NCBI GenBank assembly: GCA_964350165.1
Contig: CAYGJA010000001.1
Span: 248,377 to 312,376, forward strand
Reading direction: 5' to 3'
Length of the DNA: 64,000 nt
DNA from: an uncultured Candidatus Saccharibacteria bacterium
GTDB lineage: Bacteria; Patescibacteriota; Minisyncoccia; Phycocordibacterales; UBA1006
In this document: positions 1 to 61,982 of the stretch, piece by piece
Layout: every line of letters starts with the position of its first letter
Numbering within the stretch: the first letter of the stretch is position 1
Position numbers and translations under genes: made by a program
Notes under the pieces: generated by a model
What the model saw: the letters and a program-made list of their open reading frames with translations, nothing else
What the model was told of the DNA's origin: nothing
Database searches by the model: none

Positions 1-204
1 CAGATTGCTGACATCCTGCGTACACACTCGCTGACAATTGCCACCACAGTCTATTCCCCGCTCCAAGCCGTTCTGTTTGCCGTCAAAACACGTCGCCGGC
101 CGGGTAAAGTACCGATACGCTGTAATACCAATCAGTATCGTCGGCAGAATAGACAGGATACCGATATAGGTGAGTTTTCGCCGTTGTGACCAGGATAATG
201 CCAT
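1..204 (-). CDS. Hypothetical membrane protein, N-terminal part (gene runs off left edge)
   Basis: ATG at 204-202 on minus strand. Open frame to position 1 translates MALSWSQRRKLTYIGILSILPTILIGITAYRYF with one hydrophobic helix. Below the 60-aa ORF-track cutoff, found by manual translation. Confidence 0.3.
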   Translation of the reverse strand, partial: MALSWSQRRKLTYIGILSILPTILIGITAYRYFTRPATCFDGKQNGLERGIDCGGNCQRVCTQDVSNL

Positions 205-236
205 GGGTATATCATACCAGGATTTGTGCAGTGGTT

Positions 237-773
237 TTAATCATCTTTTTCCAGACCATGTAACCAAGCCAATATTCTGGTTGCGGTATACATAACCAAT
301 CCAACAACCAACAGCATCGCTAGCATTAACCCCGTCGGCATACTCACCGCTGGCAACAATGCTGTCCCCAACAATGCACTCATCAAAAAAACTTGCACCA
401 AATAAGGCAATCGTTGCCACCACTGACCTCGCTCCTTTTTTCCCAAAAAAACAATTCCCTCAAAAACAATCCCCACCGCCAACAACCCACCCTGCAATAC
501 AGCCACTAATTGTGCCAGCGTATACGTTCCCTCCAAAACCAAAACCGGCCGCAACACTGCCAAAGGTCGCACAAATCCCAGTTCTTGCAAATTAATAATC
601 ACAAGAATTAACAGCACCAACGCAGCCCCCAATTGCAGTGAGCGTACCCACCCCAATAACGCTGACCACAGTATCCTCCCCAGCAACAGAACGATTTTGT
701 TCGGTTTTTCTTGAATAGGGCTGGTTTTCATAGGTATATGATACCAGGCTTCGCCCCCAAAAAATCGCAACAC
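237..773 (-). CDS. Hypothetical integral membrane protein (multi-TM)
   Basis: 178-aa ORF with 4-5 hydrophobic helices (LVLLILVIINL, LLAVGIVFEGIVFLG, LLGTALLPAV, LVVGLVMYTA). No recognisable family. Confidence 0.45.
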   Translation of the reverse strand: MLRFFGGEAWYHIPMKTSPIQEKPNKIVLLLGRILWSALLGWVRSLQLGAALVLLILVIINLQELGFVRPLAVLRPVLVLEGTYTLAQLVAVLQGGLLAVGIVFEGIVFLGKKERGQWWQRLPYLVQVFLMSALLGTALLPAVSMPTGLMLAMLLVVGLVMYTATRILAWLHGLEKDD

Positions 774-829
774 CTGTTCCCACTAGCGACTATCTCTAAT
801 ATTTACAAAAAGCTATACTATTCTTGTAA

Positions 830-1705
830 TTGTTAGCTTTAATATACATATCTATGGAAATAATCCCATTTAATAAACCAGAGGAATCACGGGACGAAGG
901 ATCATTACCCAGAAGATCATTTCTAAAAAAAGCAGGGGTGGGATTCGTCGGAATGCTTCTTGGAGGGAATGCACTAGCTGGAACAGAAGGAATAGAATCA
1001 GACTGGACCATGCAACTGTTGGAGGATGAGGCCTCCCGCATCGACGGGATAAACCTGTATGCCATAGCTCAAAGTCTAAACGGAGGAGGTGCACTAGCAA
1101 CCTTCCGAAAGGAGATTCTAGAACCACTCGTCGGATCGTCAAATATGGATACTTCAGAGATTCGAGCAGCCATAAAGCAACGAATACTTAAAACGACAGA
1201 CCCCGACCTACAAGAAATCAAAGAGGCCTTTAAAGCCAAACTCCAGGAAAAAGAAACCATAACAGCAGAACGAGCAACAGCAGCAGACAATAGAACGGAA
1301 GCAGAGAGAGAAAAAGAAGAGTTAAAAGAACAATTAGAAAACTCGACTTTGGATGAACTTCCAGACGCACAGTTCATAGAATTCATTCGTCAGAAATTAA
1401 TCGAGAAAAAGAAAATCAGCGATATCGATTTCGAAGCAGGGGATAAATTTGAGCGCACCTACACCCCCGATGAACAAAAAATTTTCAAAGGCGCTGTGCA
1501 CCAAAAAGCTAAATATATTTGGGGCATAGACGAAGCAAGAAGAATACTAGACAGCCTAGAAGGAAAAAGTAGCCCACGCACAAAGGGAGACAGAGAGCGT
1601 GATGGCGGCTGGACAGAGAACACACAAAAAAGAGGCGCTGGTTCTGCTTATGGAAGGACTTGCGGAGAAGCGCTTGGTAAACTATACGAACTACTGCAGT
1701 GGTAA
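830..1705 (+). CDS. Hypothetical exported protein with twin-arginine-like signal (SLPRRSFLKKAGVGFVGMLLG), highly charged coiled-coil region
   Basis: 291-aa ORF (likely start at M854). S-R-R-x-F-L-K motif followed by hydrophobic h-region and AxA-like site. E/K-rich central segment. Followed by a rho-independent terminator. Confidence 0.5.
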   Translation: MLALIYISMEIIPFNKPEESRDEGSLPRRSFLKKAGVGFVGMLLGGNALAGTEGIESDWTMQLLEDEASRIDGINLYAIAQSLNGGGALATFRKEILEPLVGSSNMDTSEIRAAIKQRILKTTDPDLQEIKEAFKAKLQEKETITAERATAADNRTEAEREKEELKEQLENSTLDELPDAQFIEFIRQKLIEKKKISDIDFEAGDKFERTYTPDEQKIFKGAVHQKAKYIWGIDEARRILDSLEGKSSPRTKGDRERDGGWTENTQKRGAGSAYGRTCGEALGKLYELLQW

Positions 1706-1725
1706 CCCCAGAAACAGTCTCAATA

Positions 1726-1760
1726 AACCCCAGCCTTCCAATGGCTGGGGTTTATTTTTG
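1726..1760 (+). terminator. Rho-independent terminator (AAACCCCAGCC..GGCTGGGGTTT + T-run)
   Basis: 10-bp GC-rich stem, 7-nt loop, followed by TTTATTTTTG. Located 21 nt after stop of 830..1705. Confidence 0.7.
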
Positions 1761-2006
1761 GGTGATTTTTGAAAATTGGGTAAAAAAAAGACGGTGTCAT
1801 ACAGAGTACAACAACCGCCCTGCTTTGAGGCCCCACCTCTCACCTTTTACCAAACCATCTATTGGTGAGGCCTCTCTTCACTACTTCAAAAATTGCCTGC
1901 GTATCTTTTTCAAATCTATCACACCAAATAGTAGTGTCAATGGCTTGACAAGTGCTATTAAATAATGGTATAATATAAAAAGAAAGTATCTGGTTCTTTG
2001 ACAAAT

Positions 2007-2083
2007 GGTTGGTGAAACGGTGAATCTAGAGCATTCCCAGGCGGCAAGCCTGATGAATTAGACTCACCGTTTTACCAACCAAA
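2007..2083 (+). promoter_or_regulatory. Long imperfect inverted repeat (18-bp arms, 41-nt loop with nested 5-bp hairpin) immediately upstream of GC-rich gene start
   Basis: TGGTTGGTGAAACGGTGA ... TCACCGTTTTACCAACCA, one G-U wobble. 3' arm ends 9 nt before ATG 2093. No T-run, so not a classic terminator. Confidence 0.4.
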
Positions 2084-2092
2084 TCATCAATT

Positions 2093-3097
2093 ATGAAAAA
2101 AAGTATTTTTATCATCGCCACCACCCTGCTCCTGACCTTTTCTGTCCAGGCTCAGGACACAACCTGGACCTCTGTTACAGAGGTCCAGGGGGTAACCCTG
2201 GCCTCCTGGGTCAACCCAGCGGGAGACTGGGTGACACAGGTCACCGCACCCCTCCCGACGGGAGCGGTCGCCCTCCGCTGGGCGCCCGCTGACTCCTCGG
2301 CTGGGCGAGCACTGGCGCCCACCCAACACTACGAAATCGTGTCCTTGGAGGCACACCTTCCCCTGCTGGGGTGGGTGATCCTCCAAACAACGGAGGACCT
2401 GGCGGACTCGACTGAGTCCGCTAGGTCGGAACAATATTTGACCCCCCTCCCCGAGGGGACGGACTTCGTCAGGTGGAGTCACGGATTCCCGGCGAACCCG
2501 GGGGCGGTGGAAGTGAACAGCCTCCACGTGGAGGCTAAATGGGGCCTGGACCCCACCGCCTTTCCGGTCGAGTGGCTCTATTTTGAGGCCAAGACGACCG
2601 CCGAAGGGGTTGCGCTCAACTGGGCCACGGCTCAGGAGCTGAACTCCGACCGGTTCGAGGTGGAGCGCAGCGCCGACGGTACGGAGTGGGCTAACATCGG
2701 CCAAGTGGCCGCAGCTGGCTGGGCTGACTCCAAATCGGAGTATCGGTTCACCGACACCACCGCCTCCGGCCGGATGTACTACCGCCTCCGTCAGGTAGAC
2801 TTTGACGGCGCCACCGACTACAGCAGTGTGGTCGAGGCGGTCGTCGAGGCCCCCACCTCAGCCGGGCCGACCCTTCGGGTCACGAGCTGCGCGGGCAACC
2901 CGCAGGTCCACGGACTCGAGGTGGGGGCCACTGGCATGCTTCAAGTCTATGACCTGAGAGGCCAGCTGGTCTACACCAGCCAGGTGTACGGCACTGGGCA
3001 GCCAGTTACGGTCGCCCTGCCAGACCTGCCCGCCGGCCTCTACACCGCCACCATCACTGACGGCCACGGCGGAATCGGCAAGGTGCTGATAAAGTAG
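2093..3097 (+). CDS. Secreted protein with Bacteroidota-type signal peptide and C-terminal T9SS sorting domain (Por_Secre_tail-like)
   Basis: N-term MKKSIFIIATTLLLTFSVQAQ. C-term ...LQVYDLRGQLVYTSQVYGTGQPVTVALPDLPAGLYTATITDGHGGIGKVLIK matches the T9SS CTD pattern. About 64% GC with GC3-rich codons, unlike flanking DNA. Confidence 0.7.
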   Translation: MKKSIFIIATTLLLTFSVQAQDTTWTSVTEVQGVTLASWVNPAGDWVTQVTAPLPTGAVALRWAPADSSAGRALAPTQHYEIVSLEAHLPLLGWVILQTTEDLADSTESARSEQYLTPLPEGTDFVRWSHGFPANPGAVEVNSLHVEAKWGLDPTAFPVEWLYFEAKTTAEGVALNWATAQELNSDRFEVERSADGTEWANIGQVAAAGWADSKSEYRFTDTTASGRMYYRLRQVDFDGATDYSSVVEAVVEAPTSAGPTLRVTSCAGNPQVHGLEVGATGMLQVYDLRGQLVYTSQVYGTGQPVTVALPDLPAGLYTATITDGHGGIGKVLIK

Positions 3098-54948: not shown

Positions 54949-57900
54949 CTACTGCAGGGTGACCGCGAACAAAGCTTCGTGAGCCACTACTTCAGCCTCG
55001 GCTTCTTTTGCCAAATCAGCAATTTCTAATCCATTAGCATTAACGGTATTTGTAATGTGCTCTTGGTAATTGGCCAACACTTCTTTTCCGGCATCATTAG
55101 TTGCAATTAGAATATTGACAGCATCGGCAGGTTCTAATCCGGCCGTCTTGCGCAGACCCTGGATATGTCGAATGAGCTCTCGTGCGCCCCCCTCCTGCTT
55201 GAGCTCTTTGGTTAAATTAGTGTCAAACCTACAAGGAGAGCCGTCTTGGTCACCTTGTTCGACAACAATTTCTTTGACGTTCAGCTCGTCTTTTAATAGA
55301 TACTCGCACTCCTGCCAATATTTTGGCACGACAGAAGATTTTATAAAGAATGACTGTAGAGGTTGTCGGACGTTAATTTGTTCTTGTTTGCGGATATTGA
55401 GACCCATCGTCACAAAATTTCGAATCTGGAGCATTGTGCTCAATAATTCAGAGTCTACCGGCTTGTTCGAGTCGGGCCAGGTGCACAGGTGCACGCTTTC
55501 GATATCTTGTTGTTTTCTAAGAGCTTGCCAAATTTCCTCAGCTACAAAAGGCACAAATGGAGCCAATATCTTGGAAGATTCGAGTAATACGTGTCGAAGT
55601 GCTCCTCGAGCCATCGCCGCGTCTTTACTTTCTCCATCTTTAAAACGATCCCGACTACGTCGCACATACCAAGTAGACAAATCGTCCACAAAAGCAAAGA
55701 TAGCGCGCGCGCTCTGATCCAAAGCATAACCATCCAAACTCGCAGTTACTTCATTTGAAAAATCTGCCAAACGAGCGCTCATCCAATGATCCAGAATATC
55801 TTCACTGTTGTTGATGTCGACATGCTCTCCCTGACTATAGAGCTGATAAAAAGAAAGCACGTTGCGCAATCGTCGCATTACTTTGTTTCCAGCGTCCTGT
55901 ACGCCTTTTTCGGTAAAACTACTGCTCTCTCCTCGAACCACGGGCAGGGACACCATAAACAACCGAAAAGCATCAGCGCCATACGCATCAAACACCTCTC
56001 GCGGATCAGGATAATTTTTGAGGCTCTTGGACATCTTTCGTCCGTCTTCGGCCAACACGAGACCGTTCACCACCACTTGCTGGAAAGCAGGCTTGTCAAA
56101 CAATGCGGTAGCCAATACCATCAACACATAAAACCACCCCCTGGTCTGGTCCAACCCTTCGGCAATAAAGCTCGCCGGAAAACGAGATTCTTCAAATAAT
56201 TGTTCGTTTTCGAATGGATAATGCAGTTGTGCATAGGGCATCGAACCAGAATCAAACCAAACATCAAAGACGTCTTCGATGCGCTGATATTCATTCCCTT
56301 CTGCGTCTTTCAGGACAACTTCGTCGATATACGGACGGTGCAAATCCAAATCATAATTATTGTTATGAGGAATGGGAACAAAAGGCAATGGTCTAAGTTC
56401 AGCATTTTTAAACGGAACAAAATCCGCTACAAAAGCCATATCATTGGTGTCTTTTTTGTATTCTTGGTTTTTGGGCAAATGCTCCATCGCCAGGACATTG
56501 AGCAACCAACATACACCACCATGTGTCACAATGACTATTTTTTTATCGGTATGAGTTTTTTCTATTTCATAAAGAAAATCTCCTAGCCTGTTTTTGACGT
56601 CTTGATAGGATTCTCCTCCCGGAACCGGCGTAGCAAACCAATCTTTCTTTGATTGGCTGGCAATATAATCATGATAATCAGACCACGCTCCCCCTTCGAA
56701 TTCTCCGGGCTCTTGCTCACGCAAACGCTCATCCACAATGATGGACTCCTTTGCTAGCCTCAGTTCAGTGGCCAAGACTTCGGCGGTTCCTCGTGTTCGC
56801 AACAATGGAGAAGTAATAATCAAATCAATATCCTGATCCTTGAGGTCATGCGCGGTCACGACTGTCTGTTCCTTGCCCAAATCAGTAATAGGATGAATGG
56901 TGTTGTCATAAGCACTAATCACACCCAAAGCATTTGATTCGGCTTCACCGTGACGCATTACATAGTAGGTATTCTTGGCAGACGGAACGTGTTGTTTTAG
57001 CTCGGCTATCGAACCAATCACGATTTGTTTGCCTGTTTCTTTGTTTTCCCACACCGGCAATGGTGTTCCCCAAAAACGACTACGAGATACTGCCCATTCG
57101 CGAGCACCCTCTAGCCAATTGCCAAATCTCCCGTCTCGCAAATGCTCTGGCACCCAATTTGTTTTGGCATTGTTGGCTAACAAGCGGTCTTTGATAGCGG
57201 GCACATCAACGAACCAAGACTTGGTTGCATAATTAAGGAGCGGTGTGTCACAACGCCAACACAATGGATAGCTGTGTACGTATTTGTATTTTGAAAATAA
57301 TTTTTCGTTATGGGCAAGCCATTTGACGATTTCGATATCGGTCGACATGGTGTCTCCTTTTTTCTTTACCAACAGACCAGCAAAGTCTGTTACTGGTTTC
57401 AAGAATTTTCCACCAATATCTACGTGTTGAATAAAAGGTAGCTGGTATTGCTTGCCAAGCTCCATATCATCGGAACCAAAAGCCGGCGCTATATGCACAA
57501 TACCAGTTCCTTCTTCGGTAGTAACAAAATCAGCAGCGTAGACCTTCCAGCCATTCTCTCGGTTCTCTAGTGTTTCGTCATTGGTGTAATAATCAAAAAC
57601 AGGCACATAAGATTTGCCCACTAATTCCTTGCCAGAAATTTCTGATTCAACCTGGTGTTCTTTGTCTTTGAACACTTCCCCAGCCAAATCCTTGGCGACA
57701 ATATAGCTATGGTCTTCAAATGAAATTTTGACATAGGAAATTTCTTCCCCAACCGCCAGCGCCACGTTTCCTGGCAATGTCCAGGGCGTGGTAGTCCAGG
57801 CGAGCAAATAAGTCCCCGGCTCGTCTACCAGTTCGAATTTTGCAGTGACCGTAATATCGGTAACATCTGCATAGCCCAAATTAACCTCAAAGTTCGCCAG

Positions 57901-58476
57901 TGGCGTCTCGCAACGGGGACAAATATGCATTGGCTTAAAGCCCTGATTTACTAGCCCCTTGTCGTGCAATTGCCGGAACACCCACCAAACCGATTCCATA
58001 TAACTAGCCTGCATGGTCATATACGGATCCTGCATATCTACCCAACGCCCGGTACGCGGGACCAACCCCTCCCAATCGGCCGCATAGCGCAAAACACTGG
58101 CCCGAGCAGCGTCATTAAATTTGTCGATACCGTATGCCTCGATGTCTTTTTTTGATTTCAGATCAAGTTCTTTTTCTATCAAATTCTCGATTGGCAATCC
58201 ATGACAATCCCAACCCCAGCGGCGCGGCACACGATAGCCCTGCATGGTTTTGTAGCGTGGAATAATGTCCTTGATCGTACCAGCCAAAAGGTTACCCAGA
58301 TGAGCAGTACCGGTACCATAAGGAGGGCCATCATAAAACACAAATTCTCCCTGGGGTGCTTCTTTTTCTAGGCTTTTTTCAAAGATTTTTTGTTCTTGCC
58401 AAAAACGTAGGATTTGCTCTTCGCTTTCCGCCACATCGCTTTTTTCTATTTTTTTGGGAGTTTTAGCATCGCTCAT
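54949..58476 (-). CDS. ileS: Isoleucine--tRNA ligase (eukaryote-like type) carrying an in-frame histidine-phosphatase (PGAM-family) domain insertion
   Basis: HIGH-region PPYGTGTAHLGNLLAGTIKDI, CP1 editing domain, KMSKS (DGRKMSKSLKNYPDP), anticodon-binding domain. About 190-aa inserted domain YYVMRHGEAESN...ITSPLLRTRGTAEVL...VIVTHGGV between WGTPLPVW and DLHRPYIDE. ORF track starts at GTG 58494; ATG 58476 (MSDAKTPKK) preferred. Confidence 0.9.
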   Translation of the reverse strand: MSDAKTPKKIEKSDVAESEEQILRFWQEQKIFEKSLEKEAPQGEFVFYDGPPYGTGTAHLGNLLAGTIKDIIPRYKTMQGYRVPRRWGWDCHGLPIENLIEKELDLKSKKDIEAYGIDKFNDAARASVLRYAADWEGLVPRTGRWVDMQDPYMTMQASYMESVWWVFRQLHDKGLVNQGFKPMHICPRCETPLANFEVNLGYADVTDITVTAKFELVDEPGTYLLAWTTTPWTLPGNVALAVGEEISYVKISFEDHSYIVAKDLAGEVFKDKEHQVESEISGKELVGKSYVPVFDYYTNDETLENRENGWKVYAADFVTTEEGTGIVHIAPAFGSDDMELGKQYQLPFIQHVDIGGKFLKPVTDFAGLLVKKKGDTMSTDIEIVKWLAHNEKLFSKYKYVHSYPLCWRCDTPLLNYATKSWFVDVPAIKDRLLANNAKTNWVPEHLRDGRFGNWLEGAREWAVSRSRFWGTPLPVWENKETGKQIVIGSIAELKQHVPSAKNTYYVMRHGEAESNALGVISAYDNTIHPITDLGKEQTVVTAHDLKDQDIDLIITSPLLRTRGTAEVLATELRLAKESIIVDERLREQEPGEFEGGAWSDYHDYIASQSKKDWFATPVPGGESYQDVKNRLGDFLYEIEKTHTDKKIVIVTHGGVCWLLNVLAMEHLPKNQEYKKDTNDMAFVADFVPFKNAELRPLPFVPIPHNNNYDLDLHRPYIDEVVLKDAEGNEYQRIEDVFDVWFDSGSMPYAQLHYPFENEQLFEESRFPASFIAEGLDQTRGWFYVLMVLATALFDKPAFQQVVVNGLVLAEDGRKMSKSLKNYPDPREVFDAYGADAFRLFMVSLPVVRGESSSFTEKGVQDAGNKVMRRLRNVLSFYQLYSQGEHVDINNSEDILDHWMSARLADFSNEVTASLDGYALDQSARAIFAFVDDLSTWYVRRSRDRFKDGESKDAAMARGALRHVLLESSKILAPFVPFVAEEIWQALRKQQDIESVHLCTWPDSNKPVDSELLSTMLQIRNFVTMGLNIRKQEQINVRQPLQSFFIKSSVVPKYWQECEYLLKDELNVKEIVVEQGDQDGSPCRFDTNLTKELKQEGGARELIRHIQGLRKTAGLEPADAVNILIATNDAGKEVLANYQEHITNTVNANGLEIADLAKEAEAEVVAHEALFAVTLQ
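56395..56970 (-). other. Histidine phosphatase (phosphoglycerate-mutase-like, branch 1) domain embedded in IleRS (about aa 509-700)
   Basis: RHG motif (VMRHGEAESN), conserved Arg (LLRTRGTAE), glutamate (EQEPGEFEGG), distal His (VIVTHGGV). Flanked both sides by conserved IleRS catalytic-core sequence. Confidence 0.75.
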
Positions 58477-58484
58477 ATTGCCCC

Positions 58485-58495
58485 ATATTAGCACA
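58485..58495 (-). promoter_or_regulatory. Extended -10 promoter element (TGTGCTAATAT) 8 nt upstream of ileS ATG; near-leaderless transcript predicted
   Basis: Minus strand TGTGCTAATAT-ggggcaat-ATG. TGnTAATAT fits extended -10. No SD sequence. No T-box leader. Confidence 0.35.
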
Positions 58496-58552
58496 AAAGC
58501 CTTGCACGACTAGCCCCAGAGTCTTGTTTCGGAACGCTTTTCGAAACACAGA

Positions 58553-58933
58553 TTAGTCTAGAATTTTTTTATTTTTTAACGTTTTTTGCCACCAGGCTGT
58601 TTCTTTTGTGCCTTTAATATGGTTTTTGTGATAGACCAATAACACTTCGGCACTCTGCCGATTATCGTCAAGCCGAGCAATAAAACGATGACCAGACTTT
58701 AGGGCTGAGGTTTTTTCACCAAAAATCTTAAAATAACCTTTCACTATACGAGTATTTCCCTCGTGAATAATGGTCTCCAAAATACTTGTTTCTTGAATGG
58801 TTTTATCGGGCAACTGCAAAAGCCGTATTATTGCCTCTCTAGTCAGTGGCCATCTCTTTTTATGTTTTTTTGCCAAATCCTTGCAATAGTGTTTTTCCGC
58901 AAAGGTATGAATAACAACACGATACGTCGACAT
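58553..58933 (-). CDS. RelE/ParE-superfamily-like toxin (putative)
   Basis: 126 aa. YRVVIHTFAEKHYCKDLAKKHKKRWPLTREAIIRLLQLP ... GHRFIARLDDNRQSAEVLLVYHKNHIKG follows the RelE/ParE pattern. Starts 6 nt after the upstream antitoxin-like gene. Confidence 0.45.
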   Translation of the reverse strand: MSTYRVVIHTFAEKHYCKDLAKKHKKRWPLTREAIIRLLQLPDKTIQETSILETIIHEGNTRIVKGYFKIFGEKTSALKSGHRFIARLDDNRQSAEVLLVYHKNHIKGTKETAWWQKTLKNKKILD

Positions 58934-58938
58934 AACCC

Positions 58939-59637
58939 CTAGAACACATTGTCATGGTCTTCTTGACCAATCAAAGCATAGCTGATGAGCTCACCGTCTC
59001 CGGCCAGCTTGTAGGGCAGCTGTCCGTGTGTAAAAGCCACGATTTCATTAGTGCTGACATCGTGCCACTTCTTCTCGATATCATTCATCAATGTAATTTG
59101 TTCACTCGACAAATGGGCAGACTGATACAGATTTCCAGGACGCGTCGCACGGAGTAGATATACCGGCCCCTTGTCGGTGGTCTTGTGCTCGACCTCAATC
59201 AGGCCTTTTTCTTCCAACTCGTCTATCATCCGAAAATACGTGTCCGGTACGGGGCCAAATTGGATTTTGCGGTAGCCAAGCCCACTCATGCTGTCCATAT
59301 GTTCATAAAACCAAGCAAAATCAGCCAAATATAAAAGTTTGGCCAACTTTGTTTTTGGCACCTTGCCGTCGCCCGCTCCGCGGGCGACGGCCTGCAACAT
59401 TGCAATAATCATATCGCGGTAGACGTCTAATCGCGGCGCAATTCCCGCCACCAATTCTTCGACGGTTACGCCCAATACTCGCGCCAGCCGTTCGGCCTCC
59501 TGAATCGAAACATCGCGCGCGCCTTTTTCGATCGCAATATACGACGGACGCGAAAGTCCGACCGCCTCCGCCATCGAGACCTGTGTCAGCTTTTTTTCTT
59601 TTCGCAGCGTCAACACTGCATCACCTAATGTAGCCAT
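58939..59637 (-). CDS. HTH-XRE + Panacea (DUF4065/SocA-like) domain protein, putative antitoxin
   Basis: N-term LRKEKKLTQVSMAEAVGLSRPSYIAIEKGARDVSIQEAERLARVLGVTVEEL (Cro/C1 HTH). C-term KLAKLLYLADFAWFYEHMDSMSGLGYRKIQFGPVPDTYFRMIDELEEKGLIE matches the Panacea core. Confidence 0.6.
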   Translation of the reverse strand: MATLGDAVLTLRKEKKLTQVSMAEAVGLSRPSYIAIEKGARDVSIQEAERLARVLGVTVEELVAGIAPRLDVYRDMIIAMLQAVARGAGDGKVPKTKLAKLLYLADFAWFYEHMDSMSGLGYRKIQFGPVPDTYFRMIDELEEKGLIEVEHKTTDKGPVYLLRATRPGNLYQSAHLSSEQITLMNDIEKKWHDVSTNEIVAFTHGQLPYKLAGDGELISYALIGQEDHDNVF

Positions 59638-59718
59638 ATGCCTTTACTGTACAGAATGGGTGTAAAAAGTAAAGACAGGGTGTGTATTAACTTTTTACAT
59701 AACTCATTCTTTTGCGCC

Positions 59719-60522
59719 TCATTCGCTACTTTTTCGAGGCCCCAGTGGACGGAACCAAATCGAAGGGAAGGTTTTGTTATAGTTTTGCTCAAAATAAGCA
59801 ACACCCTTCTGAAGTTTGCGATACATGGCACTAAGCTCGGTGTACTCATTTTCTGAACCGATAAGCTGGATATGAAGAACTTCATTGGCTTTATAGAGCG
59901 CAAAAGCTAGCAGAATTCTCTCGTCCAGATTTTCCACTTGGTTGTCACAGCACTCATATGTGCGCATTCGATTATTAAAATAAAAAAACAAATTAGTCTT
60001 TTTATCTTTTTCTCTACCCCCGCACTTCTCTGCGGCACGCTCTTGCTGCCTATATAAAATCCACAATTTCTCTGCCAACACACTATTGGACGCTACAATC
60101 GCATGGATATGGTCTACTTGTCGATTAAATGCTTCTGCCCTCTCTAAAAACCTGGCCAAGGTATCCACAATTTTTTTTTGCTGCACAATTTTTGCACCAA
60201 ATGCTGTGCGGGCAAACCCGCCTATTTTCAAGAGTTCTGGGCCAGCAGTAAAATGGAGCGGGTATACCTGCTTATGTGGATTCCACCACTCAGCATCATG
60301 ATAATTCGCTGGATAGCGCGCCCCAATCCAGTTTTTGGCATAATCTAACTCTGCCTGAAATGCCCTCACCACAGATTTTAAATTCTGATACCGCGCAATA
60401 ATAGATTGCTGATAAGCAAGAATCGCAATAACGACAGCAATAAACGTCAGAAAAAAGGTCGCTGTATCAGCTTGAAACAATATATATTCACCTACCGGCG
60501 TCAAAATCCTGCTTATAACCAT
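59719..60522 (-). CDS. Hypothetical membrane-anchored protein (N-terminal TM, helical cytoplasmic domain)
   Basis: 267 aa. TM FFLTFIAVVIAILAY. Start overlaps stop of upstream HsdR_N-like gene by 10 nt (operon). Confidence 0.4.
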   Translation of the reverse strand: MVISRILTPVGEYILFQADTATFFLTFIAVVIAILAYQQSIIARYQNLKSVVRAFQAELDYAKNWIGARYPANYHDAEWWNPHKQVYPLHFTAGPELLKIGGFARTAFGAKIVQQKKIVDTLARFLERAEAFNRQVDHIHAIVASNSVLAEKLWILYRQQERAAEKCGGREKDKKTNLFFYFNNRMRTYECCDNQVENLDERILLAFALYKANEVLHIQLIGSENEYTELSAMYRKLQKGVAYFEQNYNKTFPSIWFRPLGPRKSSE

Positions 60523-60992: not shown

Positions 60993-61982
60993 CTACGCCT
61001 TGACTGGCAACATGTTTAATATACGCCTACGACCCGCTTCCCATTTTTTTTTACGTTCTGTTTTCTTGGGTTGATGCCTCGGATCTGTTTCAGCAACGGA
61101 TCCCAGGGTTGCCGCCATCAAGTTAACCATTGCTTCATCTATTTGTTTTATTGCACCGGCTGACGGGCTCTCCTCCCGTATGGGCAGCCCAAAATCCCAC
61201 CGGCCCGCATCCATTTTTTCAGTCAAAGAACTACTGCTTGGTGGTGCTTCATAATTCAGCAGGCCCCCTAGGTTTTGTGCAATACGAGCTGCTGCAATCA
61301 TTTCTAGGGTAGCTTTAGGAATAGTTCCGTCAGCTGTGGATAAACCATCAAACCATGTTTCAGCCAGAAAAGCATATTCTTCTGCTCTTGTTTTAACTTC
61401 TTGAAACCCACCATCAATCGAGGCGCGACGAGCAGCTTGAAGTGGATGAGTATCAATTTCTTTAAGACGATTCCGAACTAAATCGATTTCTTTTGTTAGT
61501 TCTTCGCCATTTTTTTGTCGCGCAATCAAACCACGAAGTTCTCTCTCTAGACGAGCGATATAGCCTAATTGATCAGCGTCTGTTTTTTCCATGGACCGCA
61601 GACTGGGGAGGTTAGCGCCTTCTTGGGCGTTCCTAAAATCTCTATACACTTCAAGCACCTCATTCATAGGGTCAATGACTTGACGCCAGAGCGACAAAGG
61701 TTTGTACCAATCTGGAAGACTCTGACTGTTGTTTTCGGCTAGTTGTTTCTCATGGTTGCGTACAGCGGGCAAATTTTCTTTGATGTATTGCAACCACTTT
61801 TCTTTTAATCTTGAAAGATTCTGGCCATCTATCTCGAGTGAACCTCCTTCGAAGTAATACTTAAATCCCTCTAAAATTTTTTTTTGTTCCTCGGGTAATA
61901 CTATCTTTCCGGGTGCTTCGACCAGGGAAGGGATTTCTATTTTTTTACTAAAAATATTTTTTATACCATCTAGATTAAACAT
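60993..61982 (-). CDS. Hypothetical protein (329 aa) on the segment bracketed by the 94-bp direct repeats
   Basis: Helical/coiled-coil prediction. Basic C-terminus KKTERKKKWEAGRRRILN. No integrase/transposase motifs. Confidence 0.45.
   Translation of the reverse strand: MFNLDGIKNIFSKKIEIPSLVEAPGKIVLPEEQKKILEGFKYYFEGGSLEIDGQNLSRLKEKWLQYIKENLPAVRNHEKQLAENNSQSLPDWYKPLSLWRQVIDPMNEVLEVYRDFRNAQEGANLPSLRSMEKTDADQLGYIARLERELRGLIARQKNGEELTKEIDLVRNRLKEIDTHPLQAARRASIDGGFQEVKTRAEEYAFLAETWFDGLSTADGTIPKATLEMIAAARIAQNLGGLLNYEAPPSSSSLTEKMDAGRWDFGLPIREESPSAGAIKQIDEAMVNLMAATLGSVAETDPRHQPKKTERKKKWEAGRRRILNMLPVKA

Follow-up and report, generated by a model that had tools for sequence, protein, structure and literature searches.

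A probable Panacea-type toxin-antitoxin operon with a RelE/HigB2-like toxin in a Saccharibacteria genome

We analyzed a pair of adjacent genes, here called panA and panT, in a stretch of 64,000 nucleotides (nt) from the genome of an uncultured Candidatus Saccharibacteria bacterium; this whole 64-kb stretch is referred to as the window. The two genes are minus-strand open reading frames (ORFs) with ATG starts that together occupy positions 58553-59637. Quite probably, the locus is a chromosomal type II toxin-antitoxin (TA) operon of the PanAT type, in which an antitoxin with a Panacea domain (PanA) is paired with a HigB2/RelE-like mRNase (PanT). Our starting points are the domain content and fold of the proteins, the conservation of the catalytic residues and of the pair, and a conserved motif upstream of panA; from these we infer toxicity, neutralization, autoregulation and the trigger.

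A conserved gene pair

The gene panA (58939..59637, minus strand) encodes the putative antitoxin and repressor, a protein of 232 amino acids (aa) with a predicted isoelectric point (pI) of 5.6. The gene panT (58553..58933, minus strand) encodes the putative toxin, a basic protein of 126 aa with a pI of 10.0, so that the pair consists of an acidic and a basic partner. Between the panA stop codon and the panT ATG lie 5 nt (58934..58938), a distance that suggests translational coupling. The original prediction, made by a model from the sequence alone, had placed both ORFs at these positions, and the peptide strings it quoted are found in their translations. It was right that the two genes are close together and slightly wrong about the gap, which it gave as 6 nt. 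More than 1,400 homologues of the 232-aa protein were found at E<=1e-5. Because both proteins and their adjacency are conserved, chance ORFs can be excluded.

PanA carries two recognizable domains. The Pfam model HTH_3 matched aa 11-62 with 49.1 bits against a cut-off of 23, and SocA_Panacea (PF13274), whose gathering cut-off is 25.7, matched aa 98-209 with 46.8 bits over positions 1-112 of its 113-position profile. Both scores exceed the Pfam cut-offs, and the earlier assignment of a Cro/C1 helix-turn-helix (HTH) followed by a Panacea domain, for which a search with PF13274 had been proposed as the check, is confirmed. In NCBIfam and PADLOC, PanA matched generic HTH models only. An AlphaFold2 model built from 43 homologues reached a predicted local distance difference test (pLDDT) score of 91.7 and shows a five-helix HTH at aa 4-64, a short hinge of lower confidence, and a single compact domain that takes up the rest of the chain from about aa 70. 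Taking the profile matches and the model together, we delimited an XRE-type (Cro/C1) DNA-binding domain at aa 4-64 (59446..59628, minus strand) and a Panacea (DUF4065/SocA-like) domain at aa 70-232 (58942..59430, minus strand). The latter contains an insert of a helix and a beta-hairpin at aa 133-164 in the model, and its family-invariant residues are K95-K100, Y103, D106, F107, G128-P129-V130, W191, H204, Q206 and P208. In a Foldseek comparison with the PDB, only the HTH part found matches and no solved Panacea structure was recovered. About 61 residues of the HTH superposed at about 1 A on SinR, DdrO, the restriction-modification (R-M) controller C.AhdI and P22 c2. The best 120 PanA homologues listed all have the HTH-plus-Panacea architecture and a length of about 230 aa, and wherever the source names an organism, it is a member of the Patescibacteria.

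The pairing itself is strongly conserved. By scanning one genome per GTDB species with the PanA alignment, we obtained 420 relatives, and the following counts come from the best 80 loci. These loci lie almost entirely in metagenome-assembled genomes (MAGs) labelled Patescibacteria, Saccharibacteria, Paceibacteria, Nomurabacteria and similar; the few with other labels are probably a matter of binning. A toxin homologue was encoded directly downstream on the same strand in 74 of the 80 loci, which amounts to 74 of the 78 informative ones. As for the six exceptions, two loci end too early to judge, at one (L085, 1517-1786) the toxin is reduced to an N-terminal remnant, and at three PanA stands by itself. 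At one further locus (L028) a second Panacea-like ORF (2363-3094) follows immediately after the toxin. At 75 loci we measured the spacing between the two genes (PanA stop codon to toxin start); it was always between -14 and +11 nt, with -11 at 32 loci and +5, the value of the window, at 17. As a control for ascertainment through PanA alone, we also looked up four homologues of the toxin, and in all four cases a gene with HTH and SocA_Panacea domains was found directly upstream.

Fold and candidate active site of PanT

The 126-aa protein had no match in Pfam, NCBIfam or PADLOC (E<=1) or in PHROGs, and a comparison with PDB sequences yielded nothing significant. A word-indexed homologue search returned just two proteins, namely the toxin itself and a relative with 61% identity, the sole close relative from a different sample, which is likewise encoded behind a Panacea C-terminus. 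An exhaustive HMMER search over 1.84 billion cluster representatives uncovered a much larger family of proteins that are mostly 125-140 aa long; 155 representatives passed E<=1e-3 and 95 passed E<=1e-10. In an alignment of 84 sequences, positions K22, K65, F68, S76, S80, R83, L98, Y101, K103, E111 and T112 are near-invariant. K65, R83 and K103 are each conserved in 83/84 sequences, Y101 in 82/84 and E111 in 84/84, and among the toxins of the GTDB loci each of these five residues is present in 72/72.

The AlphaFold2 model of the toxin is of high confidence (pLDDT 94.3, predicted template modeling score 0.87). Its topology is b-a-a-a-a-b-b-b-b-a: a strand and four short helices are followed by a four-stranded antiparallel sheet and a C-terminal helix. 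When we compared the model with the PDB by Foldseek, the first 38 matches were all RelE, HigB2, YoeB, HigB, YafQ or PrpT, and nothing else was significant. The best match was archaeal RelE (1wmi_A, E=2.7e-5, probability 1.0, target-normalized TM 0.68). Vibrio cholerae HigB2 (8a0x) matched at E=8.2e-5, and further matches included RelE2 and RelE1 of Mycobacterium tuberculosis, RelE of Thermus thermophilus and Escherichia coli, YoeB and HigB. The model had no significant match among the predicted viral structures of BFVD.

We then located the candidate active site by profile comparison. A search of PDB sequences with the toxin profile placed HigB-2 chains in the top five positions over the segment SGNRcIv...iLLvYsKn, at a borderline E of about 0.06. 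Aligned by hhalign with V. cholerae HigB2, which served as a single-sequence template confirmed against PDB 5ja9_C, the family profile scored a probability of 72% (E=3.3e-5). The alignment pairs R83 with Arg64, Y101 with Tyr82, K103 with Lys84 and K69 with Arg51. In HigB2, alanine at Arg51, Arg64, Tyr82 or Lys84 reduces activity by a factor of 170 to 3000 (Hadzi et al. 2017, PMC5416850). Given the hhalign result and the conservation counts, three of the four active-site residues of HigB2 are matched by near-invariant residues of the toxin. We therefore list R83, Y101, K103 and either K65 or K69 as putative catalytic residues of PanT, in which E111 and T112 are also invariant. The original prediction had described the small protein as RelE/ParE-like: the fold prediction it proposed as a check places the protein in the RelE/ParE superfamily, and the catalytic residues agree, whereas the search with RelE/ParE family hidden Markov models (HMMs) came back empty. 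As no such sequence HMM matches, the assignment rests on the fold and on profile-profile comparison.

Both the fold and the pattern of the active site speak for an mRNase of the RelE/HigB2 type and against a DNA-gyrase poison of the ParE type. The RelE fold is also that of ParE, PanT partners with ParE domains are known (PMC8832971), and both ParE2 (5cw7) and PrpT appear in the Foldseek list. But 5cw7 matched weakly (E=0.16 to 0.19) at rank 47 or lower, behind some 38 RelE/HigB/YoeB matches, and the family keeps the basic and aromatic residues of the RelE/HigB2 RNase site, which ParE does not need. On this ranking and these residues, we regard a gyrase poison as extremely unlikely.

A second alternative concerns toxicity as such. 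The 126-aa protein might be a non-toxic partner with a RelE fold, for example a co-repressor or an RNA-binding factor, and the pair a transcription-factor operon. The neighbors in the window are housekeeping genes, and some genomes keep PanA alone, both of which would suit such an arrangement. Against it stand the near-invariance of catalytic-type residues over 84 diverse sequences and the strict operon coupling with an acidic partner. In addition, a decayed toxin (L085) next to orphan antitoxins elsewhere is the usual pattern of TA decay, and Panacea has been established experimentally as an antitoxin domain (PMC8832971, PMC10440598). Overall, we consider a non-toxic partner highly unlikely.

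Relation to known systems

Panacea has been described as a hyperpromiscuous antitoxin domain, with HTH N-terminal domains in 343 PanAs and with toxin partners that include MqsR-like proteins (n=90), PemK and ParE domains (Kurata et al. 2022, PMC8832971). Within this collection, the toxin group T14 (pT15) comprises 16 RefSeq members, has the order antitoxin then toxin, and is marked 'notest' throughout (PMC8832971, Dataset S1; PNAS 119:e2102212119). Its members include WP_015641600.1, WP_129619247.1 and WP_067091868.1, and its representative was assigned by HHpred to 'Toxin HigB-2' at 99.73% (PMC8832971, Dataset S1). The PanAs paired with T14 toxins are of the HTH type in Ca. Saccharimonas aalborgensis and a TM7 strain (both with a -11 overlap), Ca. 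Cryosericum, Flexibacter and Pedobacter, and have no N-terminal domain ('noNTD') in Methanobrevibacter and Methanosphaera (PMC8832971). Another group, T28, is YoeB/ParE-like (PMC8832971, Dataset S1).

The window pair resembles T14 in several respects: an HTH-PanA comes first, a small 'hypothetical protein' second, the nearest structure is HigB-2, and both are present in Saccharibacteria/Patescibacteria. The -11 nt spacing of the T14 pairs from Saccharibacteria is likewise the most frequent one in our family (32/75), whereas the window pair itself has +5. The two differ in extent: T14 as published has 16 members, and for the present family we count 155 or more clusters at 50% identity and 420 hits in genomes, nearly all of them MAGs of Patescibacteria. 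Compared by description, not by sequence, the window pair probably belongs to T14 or to a sister group. Whether or not it does, Panacea together with a RelE-like toxin is not a new combination, contrary to what the original prediction had supposed, since Kurata et al. (2022) already list HigB-2-like T14, T28, MqsR-like and ParE partners.

Three characterized systems help to place the pair further. The V. cholerae HigB2-HigA2 system (PDB 5ja8, 5ja9, 5jaa, 8a0x; Hadzi et al. 2017) has the same toxin fold. Both toxins share an SG-x-R...LL-x-Y-x-KN core, in which Arg64/Tyr82/Lys84 of HigB2 correspond to R83/Y101/K103, and a similar N-terminal strand and helix (VFVESTIFEKY in HigB2, RVVIHTFAEKHY in the window toxin); both antitoxins have an XRE-type HTH. 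Sequence identity between the toxins is only about 16-20%. Unlike HigB2, the window family has two extra N-terminal helices with a lysine-rich insert at aa 17-48, as well as the invariant E111-T112 and W115 in the C-terminal helix. The window pair also differs in that the antitoxin gene comes first and that Panacea takes the place of the intrinsically disordered N-terminal neutralizing segment of HigA2.

The MqsR:PanA system of Burkholderia fungorum (Ernits et al. 2023, PMC10440598) likewise combines an mRNase of the RelE superfamily with a PanA of HTH and C-terminal Panacea. There the toxin is MqsR-like instead of HigB2/RelE-like, and a zinc-binding MqsA domain neutralizes it, HTH-Panacea alone being insufficient; the window PanA has no zinc-binding domain. 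The RelBE system of E. coli and archaeal aRelE-aRelB (PDB 4fxe, 1wmi) provide the fold that best matches the window toxin in Foldseek. We take the active-site residues of E. coli RelE to be K52/K54, R61, R81 and Y87. In the window toxin, the residues corresponding to RelE R61 and K80/R81 are found on the same strands. The autoregulated antitoxin-toxin bicistron of RelBE resembles the layout of the window pair, for which autoregulation is putative. RelB antitoxins, on the other hand, are ribbon-helix-helix proteins or wrap-around peptides unrelated to HTH-Panacea, and the window toxin is about 30 residues longer than the RelE of RelBE or aRelE.

Control region, neutralization and possible role

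In the intergenic region of 81 nt that precedes panA, there is a perfect 10-nt inverted repeat, TGTAAAAAGT / ACTTTTTACA, whose arms lie at 59661-59670 and 59690-59699. A repeat of this quality was reached by 9 of 5000 shuffles of the region. It flanks and overlaps a -35-like element, and we annotated it as a putative operator (59661..59699). By positional homology to the consensus of 79 upstream regions, we placed a putative sigma-70-type promoter at 59646..59673 on the minus strand, with a -35-like TTTACT (59668-59673), a 16-nt spacer and a -10-like TACAGT (59646-59651) that ends 8 nt before the panA ATG. The 79 aligned regions have in common the block ATGTCAA..gACA..cTTGACTTTTTTACA..TATAcT, with 6-8 nt between its end and the ATG, and dyad-symmetric motifs (ATGTCAA...GACA / TTGAC) occur at the same position in related loci. 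We read this block as a -35/-10 promoter with dyad elements around the -35 hexamer, and the HTH of PanA presumably binds the dyad. Because the -10-like hexamer ends so close to the start codon, the panA mRNA may be leaderless. A generic scan for 12-nt palindromes over the same 79 regions (mean 9.3 versus 8.6 in shuffles) was too noisy, and the alignment consensus was used in its place.

A comparison with the related locus L006 revealed how the module diverges. The organism behind L006 is a relative with conserved synteny: here, too, the pair is followed by the gene for isoleucyl-tRNA synthetase (IleRS). Its toxin differs from that of the window at 1/126 residues, and its PanA is 82% identical. 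Along the compared span (58450-59760 of the window against 3880-5240 of L006), DNA identity was lowest upstream (53%) and across the HTH segment (55%), rose to 94% for the Panacea segment and 99.2% for the toxin gene, and was 80.5% for IleRS. Panacea and toxin have thus remained one block, whose conservation exceeds that of the housekeeping gene beside it. From these segment-wise identities, the promoter, operator and HTH would have been replaced as one cassette, and it appears that recombination at the HTH/Panacea junction, at about 59407-59430, brought about the swap. The mosaic fits the ideas that specificity lies in the HTH and operator and that Panacea, not the HTH, is the toxin-facing part, and it proves neither.

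These observations suggest the following mechanism. A single promoter would drive panA and panT as a tightly coupled bicistron. PanA most likely represses the operon through its XRE-type HTH, by binding to the promoter-overlapping inverted repeat, and the C-terminal Panacea domain most likely binds the toxin directly and neutralizes it. PanT would be a RelE/HigB2-type ribosome-dependent mRNA endonuclease, whose beta-sheet core bears K65 or K69, R83, Y101 and K103. Loss, degradation or triggering of PanA would leave the toxin free to move into the ribosomal A site, where it would cleave mRNA and bring translation and growth to a halt.

Which part of PanA neutralizes the toxin deserves separate consideration. 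Standalone Panacea domains neutralize toxins directly, whereas in PanAs with an MqsA zinc-binding domain, PAD1 or Phd-C the extra domain neutralizes and Panacea is possibly a sensor (Ernits et al. 2023, PMC10440598). PanA of the window has only the HTH beside Panacea and no other candidate neutralizing domain, and direct neutralization by Panacea is therefore favored. The support for a toxin-facing Panacea is indirect, coming from the L006 mosaic, the T14 toxins with noNTD PanAs and the activity of standalone Panacea. Conceivably, another segment of PanA could do the work, such as the linker helix at aa 65-95 or the C-terminal tail, with Panacea as an accessory or sensor platform. The PanAs of B. 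fungorum, Bacillus subtilis Ia1a and C. doosanense do neutralize through extra domains (Ernits et al. 2023, PMC10440598), and RelE-family toxins are usually neutralized by a short helix that pushes aside the toxin's C-terminal helix (PMC5416850). Yet no extra neutralizing domain is recognizable in the window PanA, which the model shows as an HTH plus one compact Panacea fold from about aa 70. T14 toxins also occur with noNTD PanAs (PMC8832971), and, as L006 shows, the HTH module can be exchanged without separating Panacea from the toxin. We therefore judge neutralization by another segment to be quite unlikely.

Several points weigh against the PanAT reading with a HigB2/RelE-like mRNase as a whole. 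Three related genomes (L029, L050 and L086) have PanA without the toxin. At the sequence level, the link to HigB2 is borderline in hmmsearch and moderate in hhalign, and no RelE, ParE or HigB model of Pfam, NCBIfam or PADLOC matches the toxin or 83 of the 84 aligned family members; the remaining one touches PF06296 RelE at E=0.014. The counterpart of HigB2 Arg51 is ambiguous, since K69 is variable (K/R in 42/84), K65 is invariant, and the alignment has a gap there; K65 and K69 lie on the same strand of the model. The promoter hexamers of the window are weak, matching at 8/12 positions, which is why a generic promoter scan with a threshold of 9 made no call. Some multidomain PanAs do not neutralize through Panacea (Ernits et al. 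2023, PMC10440598). Finally, T14 is marked 'notest' (PMC8832971, Dataset S1).

The surroundings of homologous pairs raise the question of their role. Among 123 flanking ORFs we counted 10 ResIII, 6 Methylase_S, 5 EcoEI_R_C, 5 Schlafen-like helicase, 3 Fic and 2 MmeI/Type ISP domains; these are raw counts with no genome-wide background. The defense genes beside the pairs include both S and R subunits of type I R-M systems, and the pairs at L006, L087, L089 and L093 adjoin Type ISP or type I R-M genes, or an EcoRI methylase and GmrSD. As raw counts, they are suggestive of an association with defense islands. With regard to mobile elements, a tblastn search with the toxin found no match in the phage and plasmid collections, and PanA had only distant MqsA-Panacea or bare HTH matches among plasmids.

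With the same parts, the module might accordingly act in anti-phage abortive infection, Panacea sensing a phage cue and releasing or activating the HigB2-like mRNase. This idea extends the explanation given above and does not exclude it. A sensory role of Panacea has been proposed (Ernits et al. 2023, PMC10440598), and the defense genes just described often stand beside homologous pairs. In the window, however, the neighbors of the module are IleRS, RecO and unannotated ORFs, with no defense genes. The toxin has no match in PADLOC, where PanA matches generic HTH models only, no phage trigger is known, and the defense-gene counts are raw ones. An anti-phage role is thus a possibility that we hold to be somewhat unlikely.

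An even bolder picture can be drawn. In it, the toxins form a Patescibacteria-wide clade of HigB2-like mRNases that present sequence models miss, marked by an extended four-helix N-terminus and the invariant E-T/W motif, and serve with a Panacea sensor as an abortive-infection module in the R-M islands of these ultra-small episymbionts, while recombination exchanges the HTH-operator cassette and leaves the Panacea-toxin core untouched. We find this picture rather unlikely as a whole; if true, HTH-operator exchange would allow modules that are otherwise almost the same to be re-addressed or insulated from one another. The conceptual gain of the present analysis is small, as Panacea with RelE-superfamily toxins, including a HigB-2-like group in Saccharibacteria, was catalogued in 2022. 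What it adds is that the pairing is common in ultra-small Patescibacteria and that its toxins make up a sizeable, defined family, reached through the partner in hundreds of GTDB species genomes. Since no model of Pfam, NCBIfam or PADLOC detects this family, the TA and defense content of Patescibacteria is under-annotated. The toxin now has a confident structural model and a short list of candidate active-site residues, and the swap of HTH and operator at L006 bears on the role of Panacea in multidomain antitoxins.

The two genes of the module differ in base composition. The GC content is 37% for the toxin gene (35% at third codon positions, GC3) and 51% for panA (GC3 about 57%), compared with 44.5% for the window. 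This contrast may reflect different origins or constraints on codon usage.

Searched against Pfam, NCBIfam, PADLOC and PHROGs, two minus-strand ORFs upstream of panA, at 59719-60522 (267 aa) and 60993-61982 (329 aa), gave no match below E=0.07. Neither has a counterpart at the syntenic locus L006 or at the other loci, and we therefore leave both outside the module. ARAGORN found no tRNA or tmRNA gene across the whole window. On the other side, the toxin gene adjoins the gene for IleRS (54949-58494, minus strand), a protein of 1181 aa. Its class I catalytic domain is split into two halves by a histidine-phosphatase insert (PF00300 His_Phos_1, 109.5 bits, aa 511-670), and the IleRS at L006 carries the same insertion.

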